Under the pieces are notes generated by a model. The model was not told the origin of the DNA. It did no database searches and saw nothing but the letters and a program-made list of their open reading frames with translations. Of a stretch of DNA of 23,946 nt, positions 241 through 21,731 are shown piece after piece (position 1 is the first letter of the stretch; the number at the start of each line of letters is the position of its first letter). Source of the stretch: Promethearchaeota archaeon (GTDB lineage Archaea > Asgardarchaeota > Thorarchaeia > Thorarchaeales > Thorarchaeaceae); contig JALVPN010000040.1 of NCBI GenBank assembly GCA_027031765.1, positions 153,546 to 177,491 of the forward strand. Reading direction: 5' to 3'. The position numbers were made by a program, and so were the translations under genes.

Positions 241-318
241 TGGTGCCCCGGCCGGGATTCGAACCCGGGTCAGGGGATCGAGAGTCCCCTATGCTGGGCC
301 GGACTACACTACCGGGGC
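241..318 (-). tRNA. tRNA-Glu(CTC), intronless, CCA encoded
   Basis: Reverse complement folds as a cloverleaf: acceptor GCCCCGG/CCGGGGC, anticodon arm GGGGA-CT-CTC-GA-TCCCC, T-loop TTCGAAT, 3' ACCA. Confidence 0.97.
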
Positions 319-6008: not shown

Positions 6009-6103
6009 GCGACCGTGGTCTAGTCGGTTAGGACGGAAGCCTCCCAAGCTTCCAACCCGAGTCGATTGACATCGCGGGAATTCGAATCTCGGCGGTCGCA
6101 CCA
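6009..6103 (+). tRNA. tRNA-Gly(CCC) with a 19-nt intron at position 53/54 (6062..6080), CCA encoded
   Basis: Acceptor GCGACCG/CGGTCGC, anticodon arm GAAGC-CT-CCC-AA-GCTTC, T-stem CCGAG/CTCGG. Removing 6062..6080 restores TTCGAAT and a 76-nt tRNA. BHB: central helix CCCG/CGGG, bulges AG|T and AA|T, intron stem CGAT/ATCG. Confidence 0.93.
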
Positions 6104-6158
6104 CTCTTGTTCTTGTATCACTTGACATCCTCGAAACCCGTCGTCCTCATACTCATTG

Positions 6159-6165
6159 TTTAAAG
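6159..6165 (+). promoter_or_regulatory. Putative TATA box of the box C/D sRNA
   Basis: TTTAAAG at -28 to -22 from the sRNA terminal stem at 6187. Confidence 0.6.
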
Positions 6166-6186
6166 CCAAATGGTCTGTGCGTTCTG

Positions 6187-6268
6187 ATGTGGCGAGTGAT
6201 GAATGCAATGACCCCTCTGAGCTCTATTATGGCGATGACTGGGATCTTGAGTTATGAGCTCGCCACAT
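6187..6268 (+). ncRNA. Box C/D methylation guide sRNA; predicted D-guide target tRNA-Leu(CAA) C34
   Basis: 10-bp terminal stem ATGTGGCGAG/CTCGCCACAT; box C GTGATGA 6196-6202; D' CTGA 6217-6220; C' GCGATGA 6232-6238; degenerate D ATGA 6254-6257; 14- and 15-nt guides; upstream TATA. Confidence 0.8.
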
Positions 6269-6324
6269 TACTTTCGGTGACCCCCGCCCCCGTTGTACGT
6301 TCTATCGAACAATCCGCGCAATGC

Positions 6325-6331
6325 TTTTAAA
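6325..6331 (+). promoter_or_regulatory. Putative TATA box of cdc6
   Basis: TTTTAAA ends 31 nt before ATG 6362, consistent with a near-leaderless mRNA. Confidence 0.55.
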
Positions 6332-6361
6332 CTTGCCGTCGGATTGACATTTGGGTTGTAG

Positions 6362-7561
6362 ATGTTTCACGATTTCATAGAAGACGAACTGAGCCGTCAG
6401 AGTATATTCAGAGCTGAAGAGTTTCTGTCTATCGACTATGTACCTGAGCATCTACCCCACCGTGAAGAGGAGCTACGAACACTTCTCCGTGGTTTCAAGA
6501 CCCTTATCTCTGCTCCCGGACGTACAAGTCCGCGCTTCGTAATCGAGGGCCCCGTCGGGACTGGTAAAACGGCTGTTGCAAAGCGTTTTTCTGAAGAGCT
6601 TGTCACAGCTGCACGGAAACGTGGAGTGCGGCTGCACGGAATCCACATAAACTGCCGCGTCAACAAGAGTCCCTTCCTTGTATACCTCCGCGTCCTCAGA
6701 GAGTTCAGACCAGACTTTCCCCGGCGCGGACACTCCCCTGAGGAGCTCTTGCAGATTATCCTCGACACTCTTGATGAACAAGACCGGTATGTCCTGTTGA
6801 TACTGGACGAATTCGACTATTTCATTATCAACCCGCGAGGGCAAGAGATACTATATGCATTGACCCGGCTGGTCGATGACCGTCTGAACGAACAGCAGCG
6901 GATTTCTTTGCTCCTCATTGGACGCGACTTGCAGTCCAGCTTGGGTACACTTGACTATAGCACCCTCAGCACACTCCAACACAATTCGCTTCGCTTTCAG
7001 AAATACAGTGCAGTAGCCTTGTATGACATCCTACACGAACGTGTCGCACTGGCATTTCAAGACGGCGTTGTACTGGATGACACACTGCACCTAATCTGCG
7101 ATATTGCTGCCGAGTACGGTGACGCACGATATGCGATTGAACTGCTCTGTCGAGCCGGCAAACAGGCCGAACAGGTCGGGTCTGATTACGTGGTGCCTGA
7201 GTTTGTGCGCAAGGCAAAGGCAGACACACATCCCGAGCTCCGAAAAGAAGTATTCGAATCACTACCACTCCACAACAAACTGCTCCTCTTAGCAGCAGCG
7301 AGGCAGCTACGGGGTGTCCAAGATGCATATGTCACAATGGGCGATGTGGAAGACATGTATCGTACTGTTTGCGAGGAGTACAACCAGGCACCACGTGCCC
7401 ACACGCAGATATGGGAGTGGGTTCAAGATTTTGCAGCCCACGGCATTCTTGACACAAAGAAGTCCGGCCCTGGGCAACGTGGGCAGACAACTCTAATTGG
7501 ACTTTCCGACTTGCCGGCAGAGATGCTTGAACAGTTCCTATTGCAGCTCATTGAGGAGTGA
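6362..7561 (+). CDS. cdc6: Orc1/Cdc6 replication initiator
   Basis: DYVPEHLPHREEEL, Walker A GPVGTGKT, Walker B LILDEFD, GDARYAIELL, C-terminal winged helix ending GQRGQTTLI. Confidence 0.97.
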   Translation: MFHDFIEDELSRQSIFRAEEFLSIDYVPEHLPHREEELRTLLRGFKTLISAPGRTSPRFVIEGPVGTGKTAVAKRFSEELVTAARKRGVRLHGIHINCRVNKSPFLVYLRVLREFRPDFPRRGHSPEELLQIILDTLDEQDRYVLLILDEFDYFIINPRGQEILYALTRLVDDRLNEQQRISLLLIGRDLQSSLGTLDYSTLSTLQHNSLRFQKYSAVALYDILHERVALAFQDGVVLDDTLHLICDIAAEYGDARYAIELLCRAGKQAEQVGSDYVVPEFVRKAKADTHPELRKEVFESLPLHNKLLLLAAARQLRGVQDAYVTMGDVEDMYRTVCEEYNQAPRAHTQIWEWVQDFAAHGILDTKKSGPGQRGQTTLIGLSDLPAEMLEQFLLQLIEE

Positions 7562-7848
7562 TGAGGATGTCTGAAACTGTATTCTTGGTGCCCATTGAAG
7601 AGGTGTTTTCGTCAAAGGGCCGCACAAGAGTCCTCAAGGAGCTTGCACTTGCTGGTGAGCTTAACGTTTCCGAACTGTGCAGACGCGCCGGCCTCAATCA
7701 CAGTACCACCAAAGCACACCTTCACGTTCTGATTTCTGCGGGCCTAGTGGAAGAGAAGTGTTTTGGACGTATCCGGATCTACCGTTACCGACTGGAGGAT
7801 GTCCGTGCCCGTGCTATCAAGAGCCTCCTTGAACTCTGGATTGTGTGA
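7558..7848 (+). CDS. Small winged-helix (ArsR-like) DNA-binding protein
   Basis: VFSSKGRTRVLKEL...ELNVSELCRRAGLNHSTTKAHLHVLISAGLVEEKCFGRIRIY is an HTH plus wing pattern. Overlaps the cdc6 stop (GTGA); start may be ATG 7561 or 7567. Confidence 0.85.
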   Translation: MMRMSETVFLVPIEEVFSSKGRTRVLKELALAGELNVSELCRRAGLNHSTTKAHLHVLISAGLVEEKCFGRIRIYRYRLEDVRARAIKSLLELWIV

Positions 7849-7868
7849 GTCTACCGTGGTGACCCAAC

Positions 7869-8681
7869 TTGAATACGTTCCTTGTCCGTGTCTTCTACCT
7901 CGGACACCGATACTACGGGTCACAGTGTCAACCCGGACTCCCCACAGTACAGGGAGAGCTGATTGCTGCGCTGACACGCGCCACAGGCGAACCACACTCC
8001 CCCGCTACAGTGCATCTCTCTGGAAGAACCGACCGTGGAGTCCACAGCTTTGGCCAAGTTGCTCTGATAAAGACCAACGGGGCCCTGAATATTGGTCGAG
8101 TCAACCATCACCTGCCGGATGACATAACCATCTGGGCTCATGCTCCGGTCTCGCCTGACTTCAATGTCCGCAATGATGTGCTGATGCGCCACTATCGCTA
8201 CTACCTCTCCCAGCCATCGGGTCTGGATATCTACACAATGCGTACTGCAGCTCGTATCCTCATTGGCACAAATGACTACACGCTACTTGCAAGACGCGAT
8301 GGTGACCGCGACAGGACTACAACCCTTCTGAACATCTCCATCACAACACACGGCGACAGCATCGTGTTGGACTTCTACGGCGTCAGCTTTCTCTGGCACC
8401 TCGTCCGAAAAATCGTCTCTCTCTTGACTGCCATCGGCCAACACGAATATCCGCCGGAGTTCACAATACAGCTCCTCTCCCATAAGAGAACAATCCGTGG
8501 CGGCATCCCCCCTGCTCCACCAGAATGCCTCGTCCTTGTCGAGACCATTGTGCCCTTTCACATGCAGAAGGACAAGTACGCACTCCGACGCATTAGGAAT
8601 ACACTTGTCCGGGAAGGGGGCGTCCATTTTCGGTCATTCAAGACGCTTTCATTCCTCACCCGCGACTTCTTTATCCACTGA
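7869..8681 (+). CDS. truA: tRNA pseudouridine(38-40) synthase TruA
   Basis: YLGHRYYGSQCQPGLPTVQGEL, catalytic SGRTDRGVH, RHYRY, SFLWHLVRKIV, APPECLVL; TTG start. Confidence 0.93.
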   Translation: MNTFLVRVFYLGHRYYGSQCQPGLPTVQGELIAALTRATGEPHSPATVHLSGRTDRGVHSFGQVALIKTNGALNIGRVNHHLPDDITIWAHAPVSPDFNVRNDVLMRHYRYYLSQPSGLDIYTMRTAARILIGTNDYTLLARRDGDRDRTTTLLNISITTHGDSIVLDFYGVSFLWHLVRKIVSLLTAIGQHEYPPEFTIQLLSHKRTIRGGIPPAPPECLVLVETIVPFHMQKDKYALRRIRNTLVREGGVHFRSFKTLSFLTRDFFIH

Positions 8682-8693
8682 CACCAAGGTCTT

Positions 8694-9884
8694 CTAGTCG
8701 AACCGTTCTGCAATCCTCCTCTCTACATCTGGATTCCTCTCCACTATCTTCTCCAGGCCTTCATATGCGACTCTGCCAACGCGCCCCTGTGAAACCCGCG
8801 TGTATTTGGCAAGTCTGGCAAACAGGCCGCTCCTCTTGTTTCTCGTCCTGCTCCCCCGCCATACGAGCAGCGGCCACGATGGTTCCCGGTATGTCTTGTT
8901 CCGATACGGTGTGGTCATCCGTCCACTCGCAACACCCGCACCGGCAAGGTCGTATACATAACTGAGGAGCGACCAGTTATTCGTCAACCATATCCGCCCT
9001 AGGCTCATGTCAGCAAGCGATAGTGCTTCCATTCCCCAGTCGAGCTCTTCTGCAGTCGAGAGGTGCAGGTGCATGTTCTCTTCCAACCACAGTACGAGCT
9101 GGTCGTGATCGATATCGGTTTCGGAAAGCACCCTTCTGGCACTGGCAAAGTCCACGCCCATGAACAGGGCCTTCAGACCATCCACAAGCCCTCTCTCCCG
9201 GTCGCGCATCCATGTCCTCATATCCGAGGTGTCCGTCCCGCTCCTCACAAGCACTTCCAAGTCCGAGATGGCCGCTCTCAAGTCCCCACCACTCCTTGCT
9301 GCAATGTATTTCGCAGTCCCATCGTCAATATCAACGCCCTCGGCTGCCGCAATACTCTTGACCACCGCGGCGACCTCCGCTCTCCCCAATGGCTCAAAGG
9401 TGAAAACACGGCAGACCTTCTTGAGATCCTTGATTCTCGGACTACGTGGGTCATTGGCTGTCATCACGATTGGATGCACCGCCACCTGCACCACCTTTAG
9501 AATTGCAGCAACGCCACCACGGTCTCTAGTCCCAGATAGGCCATCTACTTCATCAAGGAGTATTACTCTCATTGCCCCGTCCAGTGTCTGTTGTGTTGCT
9601 GCCCTCCATACATTGCGCTCAATCGTAGCCCTGTTGCGCTGGTCGCTGGCATTGAACTCCACAAGCTCTGCACCTATGGTGTTCGCAATTGCATATACTG
9701 CAGATGTCTTTCCCACTCCCGGAGGGCCCACAACCAGTGCAGCCCCCTCGTGGGAGGTTCCTGTCTGCCATGCACGAATCCACTCATATAGTGCCTGCAC
9801 CTGCTCTCTGTTTCCCACGAGCTCGCCGAGCGACTTTGGGCGAAATGCTTCAGTCCACGGTAACGTTTCACCATGTGGTATCAT
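8694..9884 (-). CDS. rfcL: Replication factor C large subunit
   Basis: LPWTEAFRPKSL, GPPGVGKTS, EFNASDQR, LLDEVDGL, GDLRAAISDL; coupled to rfcS by an ATGA overlap. Confidence 0.95.
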   Translation of the reverse strand: MIPHGETLPWTEAFRPKSLGELVGNREQVQALYEWIRAWQTGTSHEGAALVVGPPGVGKTSAVYAIANTIGAELVEFNASDQRNRATIERNVWRAATQQTLDGAMRVILLDEVDGLSGTRDRGGVAAILKVVQVAVHPIVMTANDPRSPRIKDLKKVCRVFTFEPLGRAEVAAVVKSIAAAEGVDIDDGTAKYIAARSGGDLRAAISDLEVLVRSGTDTSDMRTWMRDRERGLVDGLKALFMGVDFASARRVLSETDIDHDQLVLWLEENMHLHLSTAEELDWGMEALSLADMSLGRIWLTNNWSLLSYVYDLAGAGVASGRMTTPYRNKTYREPSWPLLVWRGSRTRNKRSGLFARLAKYTRVSQGRVGRVAYEGLEKIVERNPDVERRIAERFD

Positions 9885-10834
9885 CGCATCAACCCACCAA
9901 ACTGGCTCAGCAGGGTCGTGATCTGGAGCTCACCATTTGCCCCCTCTGTTATCCTAAACTCTGTTTCGGCTGTCATCTCAAGCATCTGCATTCTCAATCT
10001 TTCTGTGGTGTCGTACCGGAGGATTGCGCGGTGGAGCTGTCTTACAAGATCTGTGGCCGATATCCCCTCGCCGTAGAGGATTGAGTGTAGTAGCTCCAGC
10101 ACCCGTCCAAAAGACCCCCCTACTGCCATCTCCAGCATTTGTGTCACCTTGCGCGGATCCGCACGTCCTGCAACTGCATACACATCCTGTTCGGTCACAT
10201 CCCTCCCAACCGATGACACAGCTTGTAGCAGGTTGATAGATGCACGCATGTCCCCCTCTGCTATATATAGGATTGCTCCAATGGCCGCGTCGTCAATCTT
10301 GAGTCCTTCCTGTCCTGCTATGTAGCGGAGCCGACTTGCAATCTCGTCGTCGCTCAACCTCGTGAACTTGAACACTGCGCACCTGGACTGGATGGGTGGT
10401 ATGATTCGACTGGAGTAGTTACAGATTAGTATCATCCTGCATGAAGACGCAAATGCCTCCATTGTCCTCCTCAGTGCGTGTTGTGCATCTGCAGTGAGAT
10501 GGTCTGCCTCGTCCAGGACAAGGATCTTGAAGGGCGCCCCTCCGGCCGGGACCGCTCTTGCAAAGTTCTTGATCTGGTTGCGTACCACATCTATGCCACG
10601 CTCATCACTTGCATTGAGCTCCATGAAGTTCCTGTCGAACCACTCTCCGAACAGGTCTCTTGCAAGTGCCATTGCAGCCGTTGTCTTTGCAGTGCCGGGC
10701 GGCCCTGCAAAGAGGCAGTGCGGGACAGACTTTGTTTCCACGAACCTCACGAGCCGTCGTACTACGGCCTCCTGTCCGACTATTTCTCGTAGTGTCCTTG
10801 GACGGTGCTTTTCTGTCCACAAGTCAGTTTCCAT
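9881..10834 (-). CDS. rfcS: Replication factor C small subunit
   Basis: LWTEKHRPRTL, GPPGTAKTT, MELNASDERGIDVVR, LDEADHLT, ALRRTME, PIQSRC, GDMRASINLLQ. Confidence 0.97.
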   Translation of the reverse strand: METDLWTEKHRPRTLREIVGQEAVVRRLVRFVETKSVPHCLFAGPPGTAKTTAAMALARDLFGEWFDRNFMELNASDERGIDVVRNQIKNFARAVPAGGAPFKILVLDEADHLTADAQHALRRTMEAFASSCRMILICNYSSRIIPPIQSRCAVFKFTRLSDDEIASRLRYIAGQEGLKIDDAAIGAILYIAEGDMRASINLLQAVSSVGRDVTEQDVYAVAGRADPRKVTQMLEMAVGGSFGRVLELLHSILYGEGISATDLVRQLHRAILRYDTTERLRMQMLEMTAETEFRITEGANGELQITTLLSQFGGLMR

Positions 10835-10959
10835 GCGACCACATCCTCCCAGAGCGGGGTGCAGGACTTACATAACCCTTTCTGGCGAGGATTAAAAAGG
10901 GCTGCACGCGTCATCATCTATGATTCCGGTGTAGACCAGAACCATGCAAGGGGCGGACT

Positions 10960-11523
10960 GTGAAGTACATGATTGTTGAGGAAAATCCCCGGTCAATTAC
11001 ACGGAGGGCAGAGATACTCCAACTGGTCGAGAACTGCGACTGCACATTTCTCACCGATGTACCGGCCATCCGCCTCAGCAACACCTCGATTGGCCCCTTC
11101 AAATCGGGTCAGACTGTTTTGCTGCCAAACTGGATTGCTGAAGTCCTGCACGACCAAGGCTTGGTCAAGATTTCTGGTGGTGGTGTTGTTGAGTGGATGT
11201 CCAGACTGCAAGCGTTGGTCAGTGACGAAAAGAACAAGGGTGCCCTGCAGGCATGCCCACCCCTCCTATATGCAACATCTCATCGTGTAGTCCTTAGTAT
11301 GAAACGTGACCGCACATCCATTGACCCAAGACAACACGACGCAATCGAGAGGGTTCTAATGATGTTGCAGACCATTGGTCAGAGCCGCTTAGGAAAAGTA
11401 ATCCGTCTGGCAAAGTCTGGTGGGTGTGCTGAACACCGTACCCGGATGACTTTCGAGGAGCGGTGGCTCTGTGACATTGTTTCCGAGCTTGTTTCCGCCT
11501 GGTATGATGCCGTTGTCTGCTGA
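10960..11523 (+). CDS. gins23: GINS complex subunit Gins23 (Psf2/Psf3-type, B-domain before A-domain)
   Basis: N-terminal beta domain FLTDVPAI...IGPFKSGQTVLLPNWIAEVL, then a helical domain with RLGKVIRLA and MTFEERWL. Start may be ATG 10969. Confidence 0.75.
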   Translation: MKYMIVEENPRSITRRAEILQLVENCDCTFLTDVPAIRLSNTSIGPFKSGQTVLLPNWIAEVLHDQGLVKISGGGVVEWMSRLQALVSDEKNKGALQACPPLLYATSHRVVLSMKRDRTSIDPRQHDAIERVLMMLQTIGQSRLGKVIRLAKSGGCAEHRTRMTFEERWLCDIVSELVSAWYDAVVC

Positions 11524-11571
11524 CCCGATTATGACTGTCTATGTGGACTGGCTCCAAGTAGGTGATGCTTA

Positions 11572-12630
11572 TTGATTACGAGCGTCGTCTTCCATGAACG
11601 GTTCCTTGACCATGTCCTCAGTCCGGGTCATCCTGAATCGCCAGCCCGACTACAGGTGGTGTTGGAACAGTTAGAAACGTCTGGTCTGATGGACAACCCG
11701 TCCATCAGGCTGATCCAGCCATCCCCAGCCGAACAACAGTATGTAACTAGAGTGCATGCGGAGGAGTACATCGAACGGCTCCGATTGGCATCGAGTGCAG
11801 GGGGTGCTATGTTCACCCTCGATACCACGTCAAATCAGCATACATACGAGGCCGCGATGCTTGCAGCTGGCGGGGGCGTGATGGCTGTCGATGAGGTGCT
11901 GTCGCACAAGGGGGAGAATGCGTTCCTACTCTGTAGGCCCCCTGGTCATCATGCAGAGTATGCACATGCCTTGGGGTTTTGTTTCGTCAACAACATTGCG
12001 GTAGCAGCAAGCCATCTGACTCATGACTGTGGCCTCCAACGTGTGATGATTGTCGACTATGATGCCCACCACGGAAATGGCACACAGGCTGCCTTCTACT
12101 CGTCGAAGGAAGTCCTCTACTTGGGAATCCATCAGGACGGCAGGACACTGTTCCCGGGGACTGGTTTTGAGGACGAGATTGGCACGGAAGATGGGACTGG
12201 CTACAATGTCAATGTACCGCTGTATCCTGGTGCGGGAGACGTGTCATATGAGGTCGTTCTTGATGAAGTGGTCGGGCCAGTAGCAGATGCCTTCAGGCCC
12301 GAGTTCGTCCTCGTTTCAGCCGGGTTCGACTGCCACTTTGCTGACCCGCTCACAAACTTGGGGCTGTCATTGCAGGGGATTGCATTGATTAACCATCGTC
12401 TGGTGCAGATTGCAGATAGACATGCTCATGGCCGGATTGTCTTCTTCTTGGAGGGCGGCTACAACCTCGTTGTTGTGGCACGCGGTGCCCAGAACTTGGT
12501 CGAAGAACTCGCACGGATTGAGGTCACACCATTTGAGGATGAAGTCCACGAGTCCGGCGCCTCCATCGACCATACGAAGTCCCTTGTACAGCGGATTGTT
12601 GACCGCCTCTCCTCAACCCTCCTCTACTGA
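11572..12630 (+). CDS. Zn-dependent histone deacetylase family protein (HDAC/AcuC superfamily)
   Basis: HPESPARL, RPPGHHA, GFCFVNN, DYDAHHGNGTQ, SAGFD, LEGGY: all catalytic and Zn ligands present. GGTGA SD-like motif upstream of the TTG start. Confidence 0.95.
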   Translation: MITSVVFHERFLDHVLSPGHPESPARLQVVLEQLETSGLMDNPSIRLIQPSPAEQQYVTRVHAEEYIERLRLASSAGGAMFTLDTTSNQHTYEAAMLAAGGGVMAVDEVLSHKGENAFLLCRPPGHHAEYAHALGFCFVNNIAVAASHLTHDCGLQRVMIVDYDAHHGNGTQAAFYSSKEVLYLGIHQDGRTLFPGTGFEDEIGTEDGTGYNVNVPLYPGAGDVSYEVVLDEVVGPVADAFRPEFVLVSAGFDCHFADPLTNLGLSLQGIALINHRLVQIADRHAHGRIVFFLEGGYNLVVVARGAQNLVEELARIEVTPFEDEVHESGASIDHTKSLVQRIVDRLSSTLLY

Positions 12631-12642
12631 ACTGAGGGCATG

Positions 12643-14880
12643 CTAGATGTAGCGGTCAAGCAGTGTCTGTATTGTGATGTCTTCCGTGTCCCTGTCGTCA
12701 GTCTGGTCAGCTACGTCTTCTGCTCCTAGAGTCCCACTGCTGCCGCCCACTTGTTTCTTGATGGACACTGCAATCTTCGTACCAATCTGTGGGAGTCCAC
12801 CTAGCTCCTCAAGTGAGGCCTCGACCAAGTCGTTTGGCGTCCTGAACCCGTGGTTGTACAGTACTCGTGCTCGTACCCGTCCCACTCCCCGTAGGCGGAC
12901 AAGACTCAGGAGCTCTGGCGCTATGCCGTACGCGACGCGTTTCTGCAATGTCCGGAGAGCCTGTGCTGTGTCGCTCGCCCCAAGGAGTCCTGCAATCTCG
13001 CTCGCAGCGTGGAGCAGCCATTTTGTCGAGTCGACGTATCTTTGGAGGTCTCCCAGACCAACATTGTGGTGTTCTGTGATTGACCTCTCCGGCGTTTCTA
13101 GAACCCAGTCCTCAAGTATCCTTGCAGTCTTCAGTTGTGAGAGGAACTCCAGATACTCTTCTCTCGCATCAAACGGGTCGGGCGGGTCGACTAGGAAGTC
13201 ATCCCAGTGACGTTCCATGGTCAGTGCATAGTCCTCAGAGTCCCCTGCAAGCACTCTTGCTTTTGGCTGGTCAACCGACGCACAGACCATGTGCAAGACG
13301 CCCAGATTTGTCAGGGGGCCCGCCCTACGAAGTGCATCGCGGAACAGCAGCGTAGTGCGGGGGTCTATGTACAGCATAGATGTCAGTCTACCCAGCTCTG
13401 TGGCCAGCAGTGTACCATCATCACTACTGTCTATCAGCTCCGAGTCATGTAGGAAGTCTAGAGCCGCAGCAATATACCTGTCAAGTCCCTCAACACCCAT
13501 CTGGTACGCAAAAAATGTGTGGCCCATCAGATGTCTAAGCCCGTCTGTGTCGTGTGCCTGTCCTGTCACGATGGCCGATAGGACATGTGACTGAATGGCC
13601 GTGACCGAGGCGAGTTGGGACTCGATTTCCTCCGGCTCCGAGAATACATAGCGGTCTAGCAGAAAGTCTCTCTCTGCCTCGGTGCGTGCAAGTAGGAGTG
13701 CCTCCCCATATTCGTCGTACTTTGGTCTGCCAGCCCGTCCTGCCATCTGCTTGTATTCGAGAACCGGTATTGCGTAGTATCCTCTGTCCGCACTGTACCG
13801 CCTATAGTCCCTGATCACTACCCTCCGCGCTGGAAGGTTGACCCCTGCAGCAAGTGTGGGTGTAGCCACTATGACCTTCACCAGGTTTCTCCTGAAGCAA
13901 TCTTCAACCAGTGCTCTCTCCATACTTGCCAGTCCTGCATGATGGAAGGCGACGCCACCCTTCAACACTACTGACAGAGTCCGGGTCATCTCCGGTACCG
14001 ATGGCATCGCGACAAGACGTTCCGCAATACCCGCAAGGGTTTCCAAGGCCTCACGAGTCAGGCTTGCACTGATTATTCTCGTCAGCTTTCTTGCAACTGC
14101 CATAGTCGAGCGACGGCTCGAAACAAAGACCAGCACCTGTCCGTCGTCCTCGATAATCTCACATACCAGCCTTGCCAGCTCATCGCCACCTCGACAACGT
14201 GGCACCCTCCGCGTGCCAAGGTTCTCGAATGTTATTCTGTCACCATACAGGACGCCCTCTGTCAGTGGGACGGGACGCCAGTCACTTGTGACTAGGTCTG
14301 CCCCCAACCACTCAGCCACCTCCCCTGCATTGGGTATTGTAGCGCTGAGCCCCACGACCTGGATGTGCGGGCTATCACAGCGTAGTTTTGCCAGCACCAT
14401 TTCAAGTGTGGGTCCCCTAGTCCCGTCATTTATCAGATGAATCTCGTCGACAACAACTGTTGCCACCTCTTCCAACCAAGGCTCCTCGTGTCTGATTAGC
14501 GAGTCGGCCCGTTCCGTTGTAAGAACCACAATGTCGGCGGTGGCAAGGTCCTCCTCACGCGTGTCATAGTCCCCTACCGACATCGCAGTGGCTATCCCTA
14601 TCTCTCGGTACTTCTGGAACTCCTGGTATTTCTCATGTGCAAGCGACCTCAGGGGGACAAGATAGAGTGCTTTCCCCCTGCCTGTGACTATGGCCTGGAG
14701 CATGGCGATTTCGGCCACAAGGGTCTTACCGGCACTTGTGGGGACCGCCATGATTAGGCTCCTACCGTCGAGCACCCCCGTTTTGAGTGCCTCCTCCTGT
14801 GGGGGGAACAACTCTGATATCCCACTGTTGCGGAGCACCTGTATCACTCGTTCATTCAGGGAAATCTCATCCACTTTCAA
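12643..14880 (-). CDS. hel308: Hel308/Hjm Ski2-like SF2 DNA helicase
   Basis: PTSAGKT, VVDEIH, GLSAT, WRPVPL, VAFHHAGL, ATPTLAAGVNLPA, QMAGRAGRP, C-terminal HhH GVGRVRAR. Confidence 0.97.
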   Translation of the reverse strand: MKVDEISLNERVIQVLRNSGISELFPPQEEALKTGVLDGRSLIMAVPTSAGKTLVAEIAMLQAIVTGRGKALYLVPLRSLAHEKYQEFQKYREIGIATAMSVGDYDTREEDLATADIVVLTTERADSLIRHEEPWLEEVATVVVDEIHLINDGTRGPTLEMVLAKLRCDSPHIQVVGLSATIPNAGEVAEWLGADLVTSDWRPVPLTEGVLYGDRITFENLGTRRVPRCRGGDELARLVCEIIEDDGQVLVFVSSRRSTMAVARKLTRIISASLTREALETLAGIAERLVAMPSVPEMTRTLSVVLKGGVAFHHAGLASMERALVEDCFRRNLVKVIVATPTLAAGVNLPARRVVIRDYRRYSADRGYYAIPVLEYKQMAGRAGRPKYDEYGEALLLARTEAERDFLLDRYVFSEPEEIESQLASVTAIQSHVLSAIVTGQAHDTDGLRHLMGHTFFAYQMGVEGLDRYIAAALDFLHDSELIDSSDDGTLLATELGRLTSMLYIDPRTTLLFRDALRRAGPLTNLGVLHMVCASVDQPKARVLAGDSEDYALTMERHWDDFLVDPPDPFDAREEYLEFLSQLKTARILEDWVLETPERSITEHHNVGLGDLQRYVDSTKWLLHAASEIAGLLGASDTAQALRTLQKRVAYGIAPELLSLVRLRGVGRVRARVLYNHGFRTPNDLVEASLEELGGLPQIGTKIAVSIKKQVGGSSGTLGAEDVADQTDDRDTEDITIQTLLDRYI

Positions 14881-14920
14881 CCAGTCATGCCACCATTGCT
14901 GTCGTTTGAGGCTGCTACTC

Positions 14921-16993
14921 CTAGCTCTGTATACGCCGTATCTTTCCGTCCCGGGGCTCGAATAAAACCCCCTCTGTAATCAGCTTCCTTATAATCTCAG
15001 CCGCCCTCTCAGCTGACAGTCCCATAGATGTTGCGCGTTCAATCAGTGCCTGTTCGCTGACCGTATTAATCCCTTCTGCCTCAAAGTCGCGCATTGCCTT
15101 GAGGATTATGTCTGATGAACTCCTCTGCGCAGCGCTCATTGTGGAGACCAGCCTGTCAATGTCCAGTTTCCCAGTCGTGCGGTCGAATGCCACCATCTTC
15201 AGTGACTCTTCCATCAGCCGTATTGCCGCCCTTGCATCCTCTTTTGTCACCTTTGTCCTGAGGGCCATCCGTGCGCGTGCCTCGGCAAGTCTGACAAGAG
15301 ACTCCAGTTGTCTCGCAGTGATAGGCACGGGTGCGGCCCCTCCCTCTGCGCTCTTCCTCAAGTCCACATAGAAGTCCTCAATCTCCTCAGCCGCCTCGGG
15401 TGTCAACTGTGGAATAACATACCTGTTGGCGTACCCGATGTACTTTTTCAGGAAGTCTGGCGGTATTGGCGGTGTCGTCCCCTCCCGTTCGACACGCTTC
15501 CTCTGGTGCATGTCCAGTATGAACCTGGCAAGCTCCCGGTCACGACTTGCCTCTACTGTATCGACCATTATCCATATGAGGTCGAACCTTGATAGAATAG
15601 TGAACGGGAGCTTGATATTGTCCTGTATCGAGAGTGATGGCTCGTAGCGACCAAGCGTGGGGTTTGCAGCAGCCAAGATGGATGTGCGTGCGTTCAGCGT
15701 CGCTACGATTCCGGCCTTGGCAATACTGACTGTGTGCTGTTCCATGGCCTCGTGGATTGCAGTACGGTCGTTAGGATCCATCTTGTCAAACTCATCGATA
15801 CACGCTATCCCTTGGTCTGCAAGCACCAGTGCGCCAGCCTCCAATGTCATCATCCCGGTTTCCGAGTCGTGCACAACTGCGGCTGTGAGGCCCGCCGCTG
15901 TCGTTCCTTTTCCTGAGGTGTACAGTGCACGGCCTCCCAACCCCGCAACAAACTTGAGGATCTGGCTCTTCCCAGTACCGGGGTCTCCTATCATAAGTAT
16001 GTTCGACCTGCCCCTCAGCCGCGTCCCGTCGGGCAATGTCTTCGGCACACCGCCGAAGAGGAGCAGCGCAATAGACTCCTTGATGTGCTCGTGGCCGTGT
16101 ATGGAGGGTGCAATCGATGCGAATATTCGCTCGTGGATGTACGGGTCTTCAGCAAGCTCCCTAATCTGTTTCTCATCCTCCTCGGTTATCTCAAGCTGTT
16201 CGTACTCTTTCTCTGTAATCTCGACACCATTTGCCTCAATGTATACTCTGAACGTGGCAAGCCGGCCGCCTCGGCGTGAGAAGTCCGGGCTGGTCTGGAG
16301 TATTCCGGTCACCTTCACGAGGTCTCCGGGCCTTGAGATGTCGACAATGTCCCCCCTCAGAATGACATCTACTGAGCGTGGCATCTGCCCGGGTGGGAGC
16401 TCCTCAGGGGCCTCCTGAATTCTTACCTTCTGCCAGTCAACAAACCGTGACTTGTCCGGCAAAAGCCTCATTGCAGTCTTCTTTCCACATACTGGACAGA
16501 GCGGGGGCTCCGTATACCTCCCTTCTTCTTGTTCCTGTGGGATTTCCTGCCCGCAAATCCTGCACATGAACACGGCATGGACAAGGAGCGGCTTGACCTC
16601 GCTCGCCCTCATGAGTATCCCACTGATGTGGATTAGCTTTCCAATATGCCTGGCTCTGATGGCCCTCAGTGCGACATGTTCGGGGTAGTTGACAATCCTC
16701 ACCTGTAGGACGCCCTCATCGACCGCACTGACATAGTCGGGGTCCTCAACACGCAGTATTGAGGTCAGTGCCTGGTTCATCACTGACAGGAGGCCTTGAG
16801 GGTCGTCGTGTGCAAGGGCAAGGAAAACGTTGTCGAATGTCATCAGGTCTTCAAAGTCGACTGTCAGAGACGTTTCATCGTTGATTGACATCTGCTGTAT
16901 CTTTGACCAGTATACGAGGTTTCCATTGGCGTCCCTATATGTCCGGAGGAACTCCTCAAAGCGTTCCTGCGGGGTGTCCATCTCAATTGACAT
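14921..16993 (-). CDS. mcm: MCM replicative helicase, about 690 aa
   Basis: Zn finger CRIC...CPVC, GQMPRS, Walker A GDPGTGKSQ, CIDEFDKM, IHEAMEQ, SRFD, ITARQLESLVRL. Start set to ATG 16993; no intein seen. Confidence 0.98.
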   Translation of the reverse strand: MSIEMDTPQERFEEFLRTYRDANGNLVYWSKIQQMSINDETSLTVDFEDLMTFDNVFLALAHDDPQGLLSVMNQALTSILRVEDPDYVSAVDEGVLQVRIVNYPEHVALRAIRARHIGKLIHISGILMRASEVKPLLVHAVFMCRICGQEIPQEQEEGRYTEPPLCPVCGKKTAMRLLPDKSRFVDWQKVRIQEAPEELPPGQMPRSVDVILRGDIVDISRPGDLVKVTGILQTSPDFSRRGGRLATFRVYIEANGVEITEKEYEQLEITEEDEKQIRELAEDPYIHERIFASIAPSIHGHEHIKESIALLLFGGVPKTLPDGTRLRGRSNILMIGDPGTGKSQILKFVAGLGGRALYTSGKGTTAAGLTAAVVHDSETGMMTLEAGALVLADQGIACIDEFDKMDPNDRTAIHEAMEQHTVSIAKAGIVATLNARTSILAAANPTLGRYEPSLSIQDNIKLPFTILSRFDLIWIMVDTVEASRDRELARFILDMHQRKRVEREGTTPPIPPDFLKKYIGYANRYVIPQLTPEAAEEIEDFYVDLRKSAEGGAAPVPITARQLESLVRLAEARARMALRTKVTKEDARAAIRLMEESLKMVAFDRTTGKLDIDRLVSTMSAAQRSSSDIILKAMRDFEAEGINTVSEQALIERATSMGLSAERAAEIIRKLITEGVLFEPRDGKIRRIQS

Positions 16994-17102
16994 AGCATCA
17001 CGCCTCAACCGGCATGCCGCACTTCCACGCGCAGCCACCATTCAGTACAGCCCAAGTGGATATGAACACAGCTCTCGCTGCCTTTGAGCTTTGTTCTGTG
17101 CC

Positions 17103-18194
17103 TCAGTATTGACCGGTTGCAGGCAGCCTGCCGCCCCATCTCCCGGACAACCTAGTCCCAAACAGCCCCATGATCTTCTCTTCATCTGGTCGTTCGATGA
17201 CCCCGCGGTCGGTGAATATTGCGGTCACAAGATCCGGGGGTGTAATATCGAACCCGGGGTTGTAGACCTTGACCGTTGGCACAGTGACATACTCGCCATT
17301 AATCTTGCGGATTTCGTCCCCATCTCTCTCCTCAATCACGACCTCTTCAGGACTGGTCTTGAAATCGAATGTGGATGTAGGTGCGGCAACATAGAACGGT
17401 ATGTTGTGGTATCTGGCAGCAATTGCCATGGTATATGTCCCTATCTTGTTGATCACATGGCCTGTCTTCAGGATCCTGTCCGCTCCGACAACGCAGCAGT
17501 CCACTCGTCCCTCGCGGAACACGGTTCCAATCATTCCGTCGGTTATCAGGGTCGTATCGATGTTGTCCTCCATCAGTTCGAACACTGTTAGACGAGCTCC
17601 CTGTTGACGCGGGCGCGTTTCAGCCGCATACACTCTAATGGCGCCGTCATATGCCTCGTGTGCGAGCCGAATCACTGCACCGACAGTCCCCAGATGAACC
17701 GTCGCGAGCGACCCAGCATTGCATATCGTCTGAATGGTGTAACCCGGTTTCATGTATGGGAGCGCGAACTCTCCAATACGCCTACACATCTGGACATCCT
17801 CTTCAGCGATGGTCTTTGCCTCTTTGACCAACCGCTCAACAATCTCGTCCGGGTTGCCACTGCTTGCACGGGCAACACGCAGCATCCTGTCCAGTGCCCA
17901 GGTCAGGTTCACAGCGGTAGGACGAGTGTTGAGGGTTCTGGCCGCCCCCTCAAGGAACTGCAGGAGCTCTTCCTTGCTTTTGGCATGGCTCTCGATTGCG
18001 GCCAGTGCCATCCCCATGGCTGCAGCAGCCCCAATTGCAGGGGCCCCTCGCACCTCCATGTCCTTGATTGCCCGTGCTATCCGCTCATGTCTGCGCGTCA
18101 CAATGTGCTCCACTACAAGGGGCAGTTTTGTCTGGTCGACAAGCCGCACCGAGTTGTCATCCAACCACTCAATCGTCCTGAACACTGTCCGCAC
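17103..18194 (-). CDS. mtnA: Methylthioribose-1-phosphate isomerase (eIF2B-like family)
   Basis: VDQTKLP, VRGAPAIG, RPTAVNL, CNAGSLAT, ETRPRQQGARLT, VGADRI, NKIGTY, NPGFDITP match MtnA rather than ribose-1,5-bisphosphate isomerase. Confidence 0.9.
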   Translation of the reverse strand: MRTVFRTIEWLDDNSVRLVDQTKLPLVVEHIVTRRHERIARAIKDMEVRGAPAIGAAAAMGMALAAIESHAKSKEELLQFLEGAARTLNTRPTAVNLTWALDRMLRVARASSGNPDEIVERLVKEAKTIAEEDVQMCRRIGEFALPYMKPGYTIQTICNAGSLATVHLGTVGAVIRLAHEAYDGAIRVYAAETRPRQQGARLTVFELMEDNIDTTLITDGMIGTVFREGRVDCCVVGADRILKTGHVINKIGTYTMAIAARYHNIPFYVAAPTSTFDFKTSPEEVVIEERDGDEIRKINGEYVTVPTVKVYNPGFDITPPDLVTAIFTDRGVIERPDEEKIMGLFGTRLSGRWGGRLPATGQY

Positions 18195-18687
18195 CTCCAG
18201 TCAGTCCTGTCAATATCGTCCTTAGTATACGTACCACATATTTGGCGGCGTCCTCCACTTCCACTGTCAGCCCCTCCCCAAACTCAATGCAACGCGGCTG
18301 GATTCCGAGCAACACCACCTGTGCACCACTCTCCTGCTCCAAGTACTCCATGAGGAATGAAAGTGGCATACTGTGGGTGCTGATTGCAACCCCTCCAATC
18401 CTGTCCTTTGACACCAGTTCGATGTGGCCCGGCTCCTTTCTCATGTCAGCTGCGTCAATGAGGATCACGCACTGTGCACCAAACTCAGCAAGTGGATGTG
18501 CAAAGGCCTCGGGGATTGAGCCTACATTCTCGACCATGATGTGCGGGTGTGTGATGTCCAAATGCGACACAACATACGGGCCAACACCATCATCCGTCCG
18601 CAGGTCGTTCCCAATGCCGAGCACTGCCACACGGCTTGCATGGCCAATGACCTTCCTCAGTTCATCCTCTATGTCTTGTTTCATCAC
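18169..18687 (-). CDS. hycI: Hydrogenase maturation protease (HycI type)
   Basis: VLGIGNDLRTDDGVG, LIDAADM, STHSMPL, LLGIQP, FGEGLT. Start GTG 18687 or ATG 18684. Confidence 0.92.
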   Translation of the reverse strand: MMKQDIEDELRKVIGHASRVAVLGIGNDLRTDDGVGPYVVSHLDITHPHIMVENVGSIPEAFAHPLAEFGAQCVILIDAADMRKEPGHIELVSKDRIGGVAISTHSMPLSFLMEYLEQESGAQVVLLGIQPRCIEFGEGLTVEVEDAAKYVVRILRTILTGLTGGADSVQDD

Positions 18688-18728
18688 ACGTCGCGTGCAC
18701 AGTACGTCCTATAGTTCTTGCTGTCCTG

Positions 18729-18756
18729 CACGACACGACACGACACGACACGACAC
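18729..18756. repeat. Perfect pentanucleotide tandem repeat (CACGA)x5.6
   Basis: CACGACACGACACGACACGACACGACAC, 42 nt upstream of hycI. Confidence 0.95.
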
Positions 18757-18997
18757 TCGATTGGGTCGGCGCCGTTCTGACACTGTTGTAGCCGTTCGAC
18801 CTGACAGGTGCGGACACCTCATCAGGGGCATGTCGAAGACTTTTTCATTGCTCCGGGCGCACTACCATCAAGACTACTGTGATGCAACTGTCGCTACTGG
18901 TACTGGGGCTCTCCCATGTACTTGTATCAGGGCGCTATCAGTGTCTAACCGCAATTCTGGCAGGTTGACAGAGTTGAGCAACGAAAGTGCAGACCAT

Positions 18998-19585
18998 GTG
19001 GACGATACTAGGGGTACTCCTGAGGGCGAGGCTGTAGATGTGCCGCCACCTCGTGTGGTCTATGTGGACGGCAAGGGGCTCGTTTCACCGGAGCATGCCG
19101 ACTCCGTTTCACAACAGGGCTTCTATGGTCTGCGTCTCGACGATGGGCGGCTCCTCTTGGAGCCTGTTGAGTTGCTCCACCTTCTAGAACGGAAACGCAT
19201 TGCAGTTGTCGACCCGGCGGGATGCTTGATGAGTGCCAAAGACATCGTGAATGACCGGCTGCCCCACGACCCGGATCTCTGGACAAGGTACCTTGTCTTT
19301 CGTGATTTGAGGAGTCGTGGTTATGCGGTACGTCAAGGGTTTGGCAAGGGGATTGACTTCCGGGTATACTCACGTGGCGAACGCCCTGGGACTACAACGG
19401 CCAGACAACTCGTGTACGTGCTGAAAGAGGGGATTCCTATCTCCCTCGTCGACCTCGACCGGGCCACCGAGACCGCCAGTGCCGCACGAAAGAAGCTGGT
19501 GTTTGCACTGGTCGACCAGAACGGTGAGGTGAGCTACTATCAGGTCGCCCAGACAGTCTTGCCCAATAGGAGTGGAGCGGTTTAG
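18998..19585 (+). CDS. endA: tRNA splicing endonuclease subunit, probably structural (beta-type, catalytic His absent)
   Basis: LEPVELLHLLE, YLVFRDLRSRGYAVRQG, DFRVY, ARKKLVFALVD...GEVSYY. Start GTG 18998 or TTG 18974. The ORF-track portion 18242-18973 is antisense hycI plus intergenic DNA. Confidence 0.88.
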   Translation: MDDTRGTPEGEAVDVPPPRVVYVDGKGLVSPEHADSVSQQGFYGLRLDDGRLLLEPVELLHLLERKRIAVVDPAGCLMSAKDIVNDRLPHDPDLWTRYLVFRDLRSRGYAVRQGFGKGIDFRVYSRGERPGTTTARQLVYVLKEGIPISLVDLDRATETASAARKKLVFALVDQNGEVSYYQVAQTVLPNRSGAV

Positions 19586-19586
19586 G

Positions 19587-20870
19587 ATGTTGGAACACGA
19601 CTCTTGGGACGATATAGATGACGAGGAAATCTGGAGGCTGCTCTCATACTTTGATGACCACACAATGAGTGTGCACCTAATTGAGAACAACCCTCCCCGG
19701 GCAAAGAGGGGGTCGCCTGGTGACTGGAACCTCGTCGAACTGTCTGAAGAGAAATTGACGCACGACGAGCTGGACATGCTCGCAACAGCAATACTGGAAA
19801 CCGCCCGCTACGACCGCCACTCCTTCATTGAAATTGAAGAGCACGGGGCCGCTGTCGTACAACTGAGGAACCTCCGGATTGCAATTGCCATGCGTCCCTT
19901 CGCGGACAAGACTGAGATTTCAGCAATCCGTCCCATTGTCAAGCTGAGCCTTGAGGACTACAGACTCAGCCCCAAGTTGATGAAACGGCTCGAGGCCCGC
20001 GCGGAGGGCATCCTTGTTTCGGGGGCACCAGGGTCGGGGAAGAGTACATTTGCTGCTGCCCTCGCAGAGTTCTACAGCCGGCGCGGGAACGTTGTCAAGA
20101 CCTTGGAGCAGCCGCGTGACCTCCAGGTGTCGGAAGAAATCGTCCAGTACTCACCGCTTGACGGGAGCATGGAGAAGGCAGCCGATGTCCTGTTGCTCGT
20201 ACGCCCTGACTTTGTGATTTATGACGAGTTGCGGAAGGACGCCGACTTTCAGGCCTATTCCGACCTGCGGTCGGCAGGTGTGGGGATGGTGGGCGTCGTC
20301 CATGCTGGCTCAGCCATTGATGCTATACAACGATTGATTCTCGGCGGCAGAGTGGAGCTCGGTCAGATTCCGAGCACGGTCGACACGGTCATTCAGATTG
20401 AGGCCGGCTCTGTGTCAAAAGTCGCCTCACTGAGCTTGAAGGTCAAGTTGCCCACTGGAATGAGCAGCTCTCAACGAGACCTGGCGCGTCCAGTTGTAGA
20501 GGTGCGTGACTTTGAGCGCGGCATTCTCGAATATGAGATGTTCTCGTTTGGGGGTGAGAGAGTGGTGGTGCCTGTTCGTGGTGCCATTCCGTCTTACCAG
20601 CCAGAAGTACGGCGGGCTCCCCCACGCGGCACACCGGGCGAAACTGTACCCATCTCCGTGAGCTACTCGAGGAAGAAGGTCACTATTCACGCAGGCCGAC
20701 GGTACGCTAAGCAGAGAATCGAGGTCTTTGCTGATAATGAATACCTCTTCACAACTGTGATAGGACGGAATGGCGAGAGCTCAATCCGCATCAAGACTCG
20801 GCAGGGGAGTGCTCTTGTCGATGCGATGGAAGAGGGCGCAGTCATCACAGCCCGAGTAGCACCGTACTAG
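19587..20870 (+). CDS. PINA-family (PilT/VirB11-like) ATPase lacking the N-terminal PIN domain, 427 aa
   Basis: YFDDHTMSVHL, GAPGSGKST, TLEQPRDLQ, RPDFVIYDELR, GMVGVVHA, DLARPVVEVRDF, YEMFSFG. ATG 19587 starts 1 nt after the endA stop. Confidence 0.88.
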   Translation: MLEHDSWDDIDDEEIWRLLSYFDDHTMSVHLIENNPPRAKRGSPGDWNLVELSEEKLTHDELDMLATAILETARYDRHSFIEIEEHGAAVVQLRNLRIAIAMRPFADKTEISAIRPIVKLSLEDYRLSPKLMKRLEARAEGILVSGAPGSGKSTFAAALAEFYSRRGNVVKTLEQPRDLQVSEEIVQYSPLDGSMEKAADVLLLVRPDFVIYDELRKDADFQAYSDLRSAGVGMVGVVHAGSAIDAIQRLILGGRVELGQIPSTVDTVIQIEAGSVSKVASLSLKVKLPTGMSSSQRDLARPVVEVRDFERGILEYEMFSFGGERVVVPVRGAIPSYQPEVRRAPPRGTPGETVPISVSYSRKKVTIHAGRRYAKQRIEVFADNEYLFTTVIGRNGESSIRIKTRQGSALVDAMEEGAVITARVAPY

Positions 20871-20955
20871 TCAGACTGAAGAAAAGAAACTGGGGCGTGC
20901 CAGGCTCCGGCTCAACTGTACCGGCGAATTAGAGCCGTGCTGGTCAGAGTGGAAC

Positions 20956-21082
20956 TGGCGGGCCCGCCCGGACTTTCCAACTGTGAGGGCCTCTCACAGT
21001 GCTTTGAACCGGGGATCGACAGCTATCTCTGGCTCTCCTGCCATAGGAGGCTGTCGCCCTATCCTGGCTAGGCAACGGGCCC
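20956..21082 (-). tRNA. tRNA-Arg(CCT) with two introns: 37/38 (21025..21043, 19 nt) and 59/60 (20973..21002, 30 nt); CCA encoded
   Basis: Acceptor GGGCCCG/CGGGCCC, anticodon stem ACAGC/GCTGT with CT-CCT-A|A loop, T-stem CCCGG/CCGGG. Removing both inserts gives a 78-nt cloverleaf with TTCAAAT. Both inserts form relaxed BHB motifs (3 of 4 central pairs). Confidence 0.92.
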
Positions 21083-21109
21083 TTGTTTGGCTGGCTACGG
21101 CCCACCGAG

Positions 21110-21115
21110 TTTAAA
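21110..21115 (-). promoter_or_regulatory. Putative TATA box of tRNA-Arg
   Basis: TTTAAA 28-33 nt upstream of the tRNA, preceded by purine-rich GAAA (BRE-like). Confidence 0.6.
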
Positions 21116-21267
21116 GATTTCGCCACCACCCAGAATGTGTGGGGCCGTCGGGCCGGGCAGTCCTCCAGTCCACGAAATCGGTAGACCCCCGCACAGTCCA
21201 CCACGGCCCTGCATTGCTGGGATGGTCTCACGTCTGGTGCCTTGTATACTGGACTGTTGTCCAGTCA

Positions 21268-21507
21268 TCACCGCCCACCATGAGCTCCCTTCTCCTCTGC
21301 GAGCCTCTTGCTCCATACCTCAATGAAGTACTCTAGAGACCTGTCATACGTCTTCTCGGCATCAGGGGGGAACAAGCATCCCGGTAGTTCTCTGTGCTGC
21401 CAATGGTAGTGTAGGCAGTCGCAACAGTAACCGTGTCTTGAACATCCTGGATATGTACATCCACATCGTTGCCGGTTCTTGTCCACATTGCAGATTCGTC
21501 CGGTCAT
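21268..21507 (-). CDS. Cys-rich conserved hypothetical protein (DUF6485-like), 79 aa
   Basis: CGCTYPGCSRHGYCCDCLHYH...ELPGCLFPPDAEKTYDRSLEYF, family recognised from memory; start set to ATG 21507. Confidence 0.75.
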   Translation of the reverse strand: MTGRICNVDKNRQRCGCTYPGCSRHGYCCDCLHYHWQHRELPGCLFPPDAEKTYDRSLEYFIEVWSKRLAEEKGAHGGR

Positions 21508-21625
21508 ACTCGGCTCTCCCATGTGTCTTATTACATGCACTATCCCATTATTGATAGACATTCCGGCGCTGTCTATGTTCATCTGTCTGATTACCGGATG
21601 ATACTGGGGTCAGAAGTAGGTTGAG

Positions 21626-21731
21626 TGGTCGGGACGGGGAGATCTGTCCCATTTCGGGGAGCCCCGAAATGTTTGAACTCCCAACCAACGGATCTACAGT
21701 CCGTTGCTCTGCCAGATTGAGCTACGTCCCG
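21626..21731 (-). tRNA. tRNA-Tyr(GTA) with a 29-nt intron at 58/59 (21644..21672); CCA encoded
   Basis: Acceptor CGGGACG/CGTCCCG (C1:G72 and A73, the archaeal Tyr identity elements), anticodon arm ACGGA-CT-GTA-GA-TCCGT, T-stem GGGAG/CTCCC; strict hBHBh' motif. Confidence 0.95.

Follow-up and report, generated by a model that had tools for sequence, protein, structure and literature searches.

In Thermoproteales, and in Crenarchaeota more broadly, transfer RNA (tRNA) genes carry non-canonical and multiple introns, which are processed by an EndA splicing endonuclease of broad specificity (PMC4033280, PMC3241643). Such introns are the subject of Marck & Grosjean 2003, Sugahara 2008 and Fujishima 2010, as these works are cited in PMC4033280. 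In the (αβ)2 EndA of Aeropyrum pernix, the lysine K44 of the Crenarchaea-specific loop is required to cut non-canonical introns (PDB 3P1Z; Hirata 2011, PMC3241643). In Asgard archaea, investigations on four genomes, including one of Thorarchaeota, revealed an (αβ)2 EndA with the L1 loop together with disrupted tRNA genes, and the authors noted that further disrupted genes must have escaped detection (Kaneta 2018, PMC5829648). Interruption was later reported for 92-95% of the tRNA genes in Atabeyarchaeia and Freyarchaeia (Valentin-Alvarado 2024, PMC11291895). A preprint on 90 Asgard genomes found the annotated introns concentrated at position 37/38 and in the T-arm, and described repeated lineage-specific gains with no general copying route (Goswami 2026, bioRxiv 10.64898/2026.10.13.758758); Thorarchaeia are not named in its main text. 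The stretch considered here comprises 23,946 nucleotides of a Promethearchaeota archaeon (NCBI GenBank assembly GCA_027031765.1, contig JALVPN010000040.1, positions 153,546 to 177,491 of the forward strand) and is referred to below as the window, with positions numbered from its first letter. Three of its four tRNA genes are interrupted in the T-arm, one of them also at the canonical position 37/38, and an EndA subunit gene is encoded in the same window. With a probability of about 0.9, the introns are of the ordinary protein-spliced archaeal kind, in a Thorarchaeote in which interruption of tRNA genes is widespread. We infer cleavage and ligation from what can be seen directly, namely the gene structures, the motifs, the genes for the enzymes and the pattern of occurrence in relatives.

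A first-pass annotation of this DNA had named four tRNAs, with introns at 53/54 in tRNA-Gly, at 58/59 in tRNA-Tyr and at both 37/38 and 59/60 in tRNA-Arg, and with none in tRNA-Glu; our parse returned every one of these positions. The intron-free tRNA-Glu(CUC) gene (241-318, minus strand) is called by ARAGORN, scores 60.5 bits with the Rfam tRNA model and gives a cloverleaf of 30/30 in our own scanner. The tRNA-Gly(CCC) precursor gene (6009-6103, plus strand) reaches 48 bits in Rfam, where the match has 24 nt inserted in the region of the T-loop, and the tRNA-Tyr(GUA) precursor gene (21626-21731, minus strand), which has C1-G72, reaches 31.5 bits. The tRNA-Arg(CCU) precursor gene (20956-21082, minus strand), with two introns, was obtained from our own parse. 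All four genes encode CCA. When the inserts are removed (19 nt from Gly, 29 nt from Tyr, 19 and 30 nt from Arg), the cloverleaves of tRNA-Gly, tRNA-Tyr and tRNA-Arg likewise score 30/30 in the scanner with their stems paired 7/4/5/5, and the spliced exons retain U8, G18G19, U33, the T-loop UUCRAAU and the encoded CCA. ARAGORN and the Rfam tRNA model each report three tRNA genes in the window, the same three in both. For tRNA-Arg(CCU) there was no ARAGORN call and no Rfam match even at E ≤ 10. The 3′ end of tRNA-Tyr is wrong in both finders, as the ARAGORN call (21656-21730) stops inside the intron and the Rfam match leaves the T-arm unaligned. The earlier suspicion that standard annotation could miss such genes was thus borne out.

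Two spurious open reading frames (ORFs) overlie tRNA genes on the minus strand, one of 95 aa (20944-21231) over tRNA-Arg(CCU) and one of 120 aa (2-361) over tRNA-Glu, and a gene caller could report them instead of the tRNAs. The 3′ part of tRNA-Tyr (21626-21690) resembles tRNA-Trp (C217:23056-23120) at 78% over 65 nt by BLAST; the T-arms of the two genes are identical and the acceptor 3′ strands match at 6/7 positions, with intron interiors that are near random.

The first-pass annotation presented the window as an intron-rich locus. This description did not hold at the level of the locus: intron richness is a genome-wide trait, and the window is not special in this respect. The genome is a metagenome-assembled genome (MAG) of 2.95 Mb in 229 contigs, 95% complete and of 59% GC, with the window on contig 40. 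The census of tRNA genes was made with our own scanner, which found 45 genes; Cys was added from Rfam and Sec from ARAGORN, giving 47. The scanner accepts a gene only if CCA is encoded, the acceptor stem has 7 bp and the D-arm or the T-arm is intact; it would overlook genes interrupted in the acceptor stem or in both of these arms. In the parse, long variable arms were allowed for Leu and Ser only, and extra introns were penalized. The reversed genome gave no matches at the threshold of 25.5 (best 25.0) compared with 45 in the real genome, and the tRNA calls are beyond chance because the same scanner matches nothing in the reversed genome at this threshold. Each anticodon occurs once among the 47 genes except for three CAU genes, and all 46 anticodon species that are standard in archaea are represented, with tRNA-Sec in addition. 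Interruptions were found in 28 of the 47 genes, amounting to 34 introns: 14 in the T-arm (53/54 once, 56/57 twice, 58/59 three times and 59/60 eight times), six in the D-loop, four in the variable region and ten at or beside 37/38. Position 59/60 is therefore the commonest non-canonical site; the non-canonical introns are mostly 29-31 nt long, and no gene has more than two introns. For Gly(CCC), Tyr(GUA) and Arg(CCU), the interrupted gene is the sole gene for the anticodon. As the standard set is encoded once each, the interrupted window genes are the only source of these three tRNAs; intronless duplicates, which the first-pass annotation had set as a finding that would speak against its reading, are absent from the census.

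The candidate tRNA-Sec(UCA) is located at C107:10649-10739 on the minus strand, and the 3′ CCA is encoded in every examined tRNA gene of the genome. ARAGORN with its intron search was rejected as a census tool, since several of its calls were spurious, their introns running to hundreds of bases, and it also reported a false Val(GAC) on contig C91.

The motif of archaeal tRNA introns known as bulge-helix-bulge (BHB) is formed when four exon bases 5′ of the first cut pair with four intron bases 5′ of the second cut, and the cuts fall after the second base of each three-base bulge. The four window introns can be arranged by how closely they follow this plan. The tRNA-Tyr intron at 58/59 in the T-loop (29 nt, 21644-21672, minus strand) has a strict hBHBh′ form, with a central helix of 4/4 (G53-C56 with GGAC), an inner helix of 9 bp and an outer helix of 4 bp made via a slipped T-stem. 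The tRNA-Gly intron at 53/54 (19 nt, 6062-6080, plus strand; own parse) has a central helix of 4/4 (C48-G51 with CGGG), bulges AG|U and AA|U and an inner hairpin of 4 bp, and its outer helix is 1 bp. The canonical tRNA-Arg(CCU) intron at 37/38 (19 nt, 21025-21043, minus strand) has a relaxed BHB, in which the central helix is 3/4 with one mismatch, the inner helix is 3 bp and the native anticodon stem contributes to an outer helix of 7. The second tRNA-Arg(CCU) intron, at 59/60 in the T-loop (30 nt, 20973-21002, minus strand; own parse), has a central helix of 3/4 formed by U54-A57 with one A·G mismatch, an inner hairpin of 7-8 bp and the native T-stem (5 bp) as the outer helix. The claim that each intron forms a hairpin plus a BHB was therefore upheld in graded form: it stands in full for Tyr, with an outer helix of 1 bp in Gly and a central helix of 3/4 in both Arg introns. 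In our own reading of this anatomy, positions 59/60 and 37/38 share a geometry: the outer helix is supplied by a stem of 5 bp, the loop has 7 nt, and the cut site follows base 6 of the loop. At both positions, the first four loop bases make the central helix with the 3′ end of the intron.

Regarding the splicing enzymes, the EndA gene of the window is located at 19040-19585 on the plus strand (about 181-195 aa), probably with a GTG start at 19040 or 18998, and its product contains both the N- and C-terminal EndA domains (Pfam tRNA_int_endo_N and tRNA_int_endo). In a pairwise alignment only, against the α unit of M. kandleri, the Tyr and Lys positions are kept and Thr occupies the position of the catalytic His; because Thr replaces this residue, the window copy is assigned as the non-catalytic structural β subunit. 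A longer EndA ORF of 447 aa starting at 18242 was rejected as carrying a false N-terminal extension, whose first 150 codons run antisense to a gene for a HycI-type hydrogenase maturation protease (18169-18687, minus strand; Pfam 4.3e-15). Open frames of EndA β in relatives are 204-320 aa only, and about 180 residues align among the orthologues. The false extension (18242-19039, plus strand) opposite HycI is the sort of ORF common in this GC-rich (59%) genome. A second EndA paralogue, the α subunit, is encoded outside the window at C38:6195-6584. It aligns over its entire length with residues 41-186 of the A. pernix α subunit 3P1Z_B (E 1.4e-33) and keeps the catalytic Tyr/His/Lys, and its KPK aligns to K44-P-R46 of the specificity loop. 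Both EndA paralogues were matched in 29 of 31 family genomes, the other two (G017 and G041) having only a weaker α-like match. RtcB ligase is also encoded outside the window (590 bits). These genes support a heteromeric endonuclease of the predicted (αβ)2 type with a specificity loop, in keeping with the comparison that the first-pass annotation had drawn with Thermoproteales. Each tRNA gene would be transcribed as a precursor, and the RNA at the exon-intron junctions would fold into a strict or relaxed BHB. The putative heterotetrameric (αβ)2 EndA, with α encoded elsewhere and β in the window, would cut within both 3-nt bulges by means of the crenarchaeal-type specificity loop on the catalytic α subunit, and RtcB would join the exons.

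The junctions of the 34 genome introns have a mean BHB score of 14.4 compared with 5.0 for same-length placements elsewhere in the same precursors, and 32 of the 34 rank in the top 5% of placements, a comparison that is partly circular as the scores helped pick boundaries a few bases apart. This circularity weighs against protein splicing of these introns, as do four further points. Three of the four window introns are relaxed, with a central mismatch in both Arg introns and an outer helix that is almost absent in Gly. The minimum-free-energy folds of the precursors draw exon stems and intron hairpins without the 4-bp central helices, which were read by direct pairing. The Arg 59/60 junction could also be read shifted by one base, and the bulges would then have 4 nt. 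Finally, the EndA α gene is cut at a contig end, with about 40 N-terminal residues missing.

Concerning the lineage, the MCM protein of the window shows up to 81% identity to many Thorarchaeota MAGs and less than 52% to other groups, which places the genome in the Thorarchaeota, in agreement with the earlier, tentative placement in Thorarchaeia. The comparison collection consisted of 85 other species genomes of the same family, none of them of the same genus, and the three interrupted precursors were searched in 50 family genomes and the returned loci were parsed. The Gly 53/54 intron occurs in 24 of 30 family loci at lengths of 18-29 nt, and tRNA-Gly(CCC) is intron-free at five loci of the genera g3 and g6. 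Four Gly loci of relatives (L152, L155, L158 and L163) were left unparsed by the scanner and were aligned at full length by BLAST. The motif CGGG is kept in 23 of the 24 introns, and the inner stem varies between genera and is always paired (3-7 bp). Its occurrence at 24 of the 30 loci and its covarying stem mark the Gly 53/54 intron as old, family-wide and structurally constrained. In most relatives with this intron, position 52 is A and faces C62, which leaves the mature T-stem mismatched at this pair, and intron-free genes have G52-C62; the 5′ bulge begins with A52, so that the intron may place a constraint on the exon (L139-L160).

The two introns of tRNA-Arg(CCU) differ in distribution. 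Each of the 13 orthologues recovered from the family has a 37/38 intron, of 20-26 nt, and none of them has a T-loop intron. A pattern search of the 85 other family genomes, permitting up to 3 mismatches in 25, gave no match to the Arg 59/60 intron sequence. The 59/60 intron is probably a recent gain specific to this genus, known only from this genome. At the tRNA beside the DUF6485 gene (L083-L107), most relatives have Arg(UCG) and this genome has Arg(CCU); across genera, the Arg(UCG) at this site is intron-free or interrupted at 19/20, at 37/38, at 59/60, or at 19/20 and 37/38 together.

tRNA-Tyr(GUA) shows seven intron states among 29 parsed family loci: 15 loci are intron-free, six have an intron at 37/38, three at 58/59 and two in the D-loop, one has an intron at 56/57 alone, and one has introns at 37/38 and 56/57 together. 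The 58/59 carriers are this genome and two of the four genomes of genus g5. One genome of g5, G004, has about 22 introns; the T-arm holds at least six of them, four or five of which also occur in this genome. Its census was seeded by Rfam matches and is a lower bound. Therefore, the 14 T-arm introns of this genome stand against at least six in G004, and about eight to nine of them are absent from G004. A weak Rfam match in G004 (L236) contained no tRNA. The Glu(CUC) gene of the g5 genome (L240, G004:C17:147284-147657) parses with 34 nt inserted into the D-stem at 10/11, an insert that the window Glu(CUC) does not have. Taken together, T-arm introns are a dynamic trait of the whole family, and this genus has about twice the T-arm introns of the one relative surveyed. 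The first-pass annotation had proposed that the lineage underwent its own T-arm intron expansion. The count of 14 versus at least six and the unique Arg 59/60 intron agree with this proposal, and the old, family-wide Gly 53/54 intron does not. It is possible, if unlikely, that T-loop introns are at present being gained in a burst in this genus, the new ones arising at positions that follow the T-stem sequence.

As for the origin of the introns, copying between tRNA genes is the alternative with the most in its favor, although it too is doubtful. The interiors of the Tyr 58/59 and Pro(GGG) 58/59 introns are alike (score 20, p about 0.0003 per pair), and the Arg(CCU) 59/60 and Lys(UUU) 59/60 introns share 15 of 19 bases, with the same offset in both. 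An all-versus-all comparison of the introns gave 23 similar pairs at the 99th percentile of shuffles compared with 5.6 expected. However, most of the introns are unrelated. Much of this excess resides in the intron ends, whose similarity is partly forced by pairing with the conserved T-loop; in the interiors, same-position pairs are on average no closer than shuffled ones (mean score of 9.1 compared with 8.4), and of 91 pairs tested, only that of Tyr 58/59 and Pro(GGG) 58/59 remains significant after correction. The 80% identity of the Thermoproteales intron families is not attained by any pair, the best matches across tRNAs (13/14 and 15/19) being short and local. Such families account for 1.5% of focal Asgard introns compared with 28% in Thermoproteales (bioRxiv 10.64898/2026.10.13.758758). 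The position of the introns also tracks the T-stem, which would fit copying: all three 58/59 introns lie in GGGAG/CTCCC stems and both 56/57 introns in GCCGG/CCGGC stems, the pairing of 56/57 with GCCGG holding in relatives too. This association may reflect either ancestry or structure.

The proximity of EndA β to an interrupted tRNA gene raises the question of whether the window could be a functional "splicing island," in which EndA β and the intron-bearing tRNAs are co-regulated or co-inherited. The EndA gene had been described as lying 1.4 kb from tRNA-Arg, and the distance from its end (19585) to the 3′ end of tRNA-Arg is indeed 1,370 nt. Furthermore, the order EndA β, P-loop ATPase gene, tRNA-Arg(CCU) recurs in family genomes with a gap of about 1.3-1.4 kb between EndA β and the tRNA (e.g., in G009, G023, G006 and G045). 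Shared order within one family is, however, what common descent predicts, and the relatives with this same order have only the canonical Arg(CCU) intron. The introns are scattered genome-wide on many contigs, and the catalytic EndA α and RtcB genes are located elsewhere. In addition, since the 2.95-Mb genome has 47 tRNA genes, any given gene has a chance of about 4% of lying no more than 1.4 kb from one of them. A splicing island is thus very improbable, and the position of EndA β beside tRNA-Arg is a family-wide gene order with no evidence for a functional link.

It is still less probable that the interrupted genes are decaying pseudogenes, or that the inserts are retained, for example as extra arms, with decoding supplied otherwise. 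The relaxed form of some motifs would fit such a reading, but each interrupted gene is the sole gene for its anticodon, the standard set being complete only if these genes are counted, and the exons are intact with all of the conserved bases. The Gly intron has been kept across many genera with compensatory stem changes, and a T-loop insert of 29-30 nt is incompatible with the interaction between T-loop and D-loop established for tRNA structure. An artefact of assembly, binning or scanning, for which the 229 contigs of the MAG and the home-made scanner might be held responsible, can practically be set aside, as the reversed genome gave no matches, Rfam independently recovers Gly together with the 5′ portion of Tyr, independent family genomes have introns at these same sites, and a public hydrothermal-vent metagenome, possibly the source sample, contains 99% of the sampled words of the window.

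Outside the tRNA and EndA genes, the window contains a dense cluster of replication genes (6362-17041) for Orc1/Cdc6, the large and small RFC subunits, a Hel308-type helicase and MCM, with a weak GINS-like ORF at 10960-11523 within it. tRNA-Gly is located in a 530-nt gap upstream of cdc6, and this gap is a plausible site for a replication origin. A gene for a TruA-family tRNA pseudouridine synthase (7869-8681, plus strand) occurs in the same window as the tRNAs and EndA β, which is probably a coincidence.

The case has several implications. About one third of the tRNA set is invisible to ARAGORN and Rfam or given wrong ends by them, so that MAGs of this kind seem short of essential tRNAs. The states of tRNA-Tyr point to rapid intron turnover within one Asgard family. 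The geometry shared with 37/38 would provide a simple structural reason for the hot spot at 59/60, and the Arg(CCU) 59/60 intron would be one datable recent gain. If the genus is in a burst of intron gain, paired strains could catch an insertion and show how archaeal introns arrive, a question left open by the 2026 Asgard census (bioRxiv 10.64898/2026.10.13.758758).

In comparison with known systems, the genome resembles Thermoproteales in having short introns with BHB or relaxed motifs in the D-loop, the variable region, the T-loop and at 37/38, in the interruption of the majority of its tRNA genes, and in a predicted (αβ)2 EndA with a specificity loop. It differs from them in belonging to an Asgard phylum and in having no intron families of at least 80% identity across tRNA types, the signature of the transposition proposed there. 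With regard to the enzyme, two paralogues are present as in A. pernix and in the L1-loop EndA of Asgard and TACK archaea, the α subunit having Tyr/His/Lys and the loop Lys and the β subunit being without the catalytic His. Compared with A. pernix EndA, the predicted Thorarchaeote enzyme has a β subunit that keeps the Tyr and Lys positions and both domains, and its α gene is truncated at a contig end. Among Asgard archaea (Goswami 2026, bioRxiv 10.64898/2026.10.13.758758), the many non-canonical positions, the concentration at 37/38 and in the T-arm, the repeated lineage-specific gains, the introns missed by standard tools and the lack of a general copying route are shared features. The burden is lower here: about 0.7 introns per gene (34 in 47) is close to the median of 0.86 for non-focal families and far under the 2.0-2.4 of Freyr-, Jordi- and Atabeyarchaeia in the same preprint. 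The novelty that had been left open in the first pass is accordingly lowered, and only the novelty, as the pattern is already documented for Asgard (PMC5829648, PMC11291895, bioRxiv 10.64898/2026.10.13.758758). The phenomenon being known for both Asgard archaea and Thermoproteales, this Thorarchaeote leaves the knowledge of tRNA splicing unchanged and adds a documented example to it.

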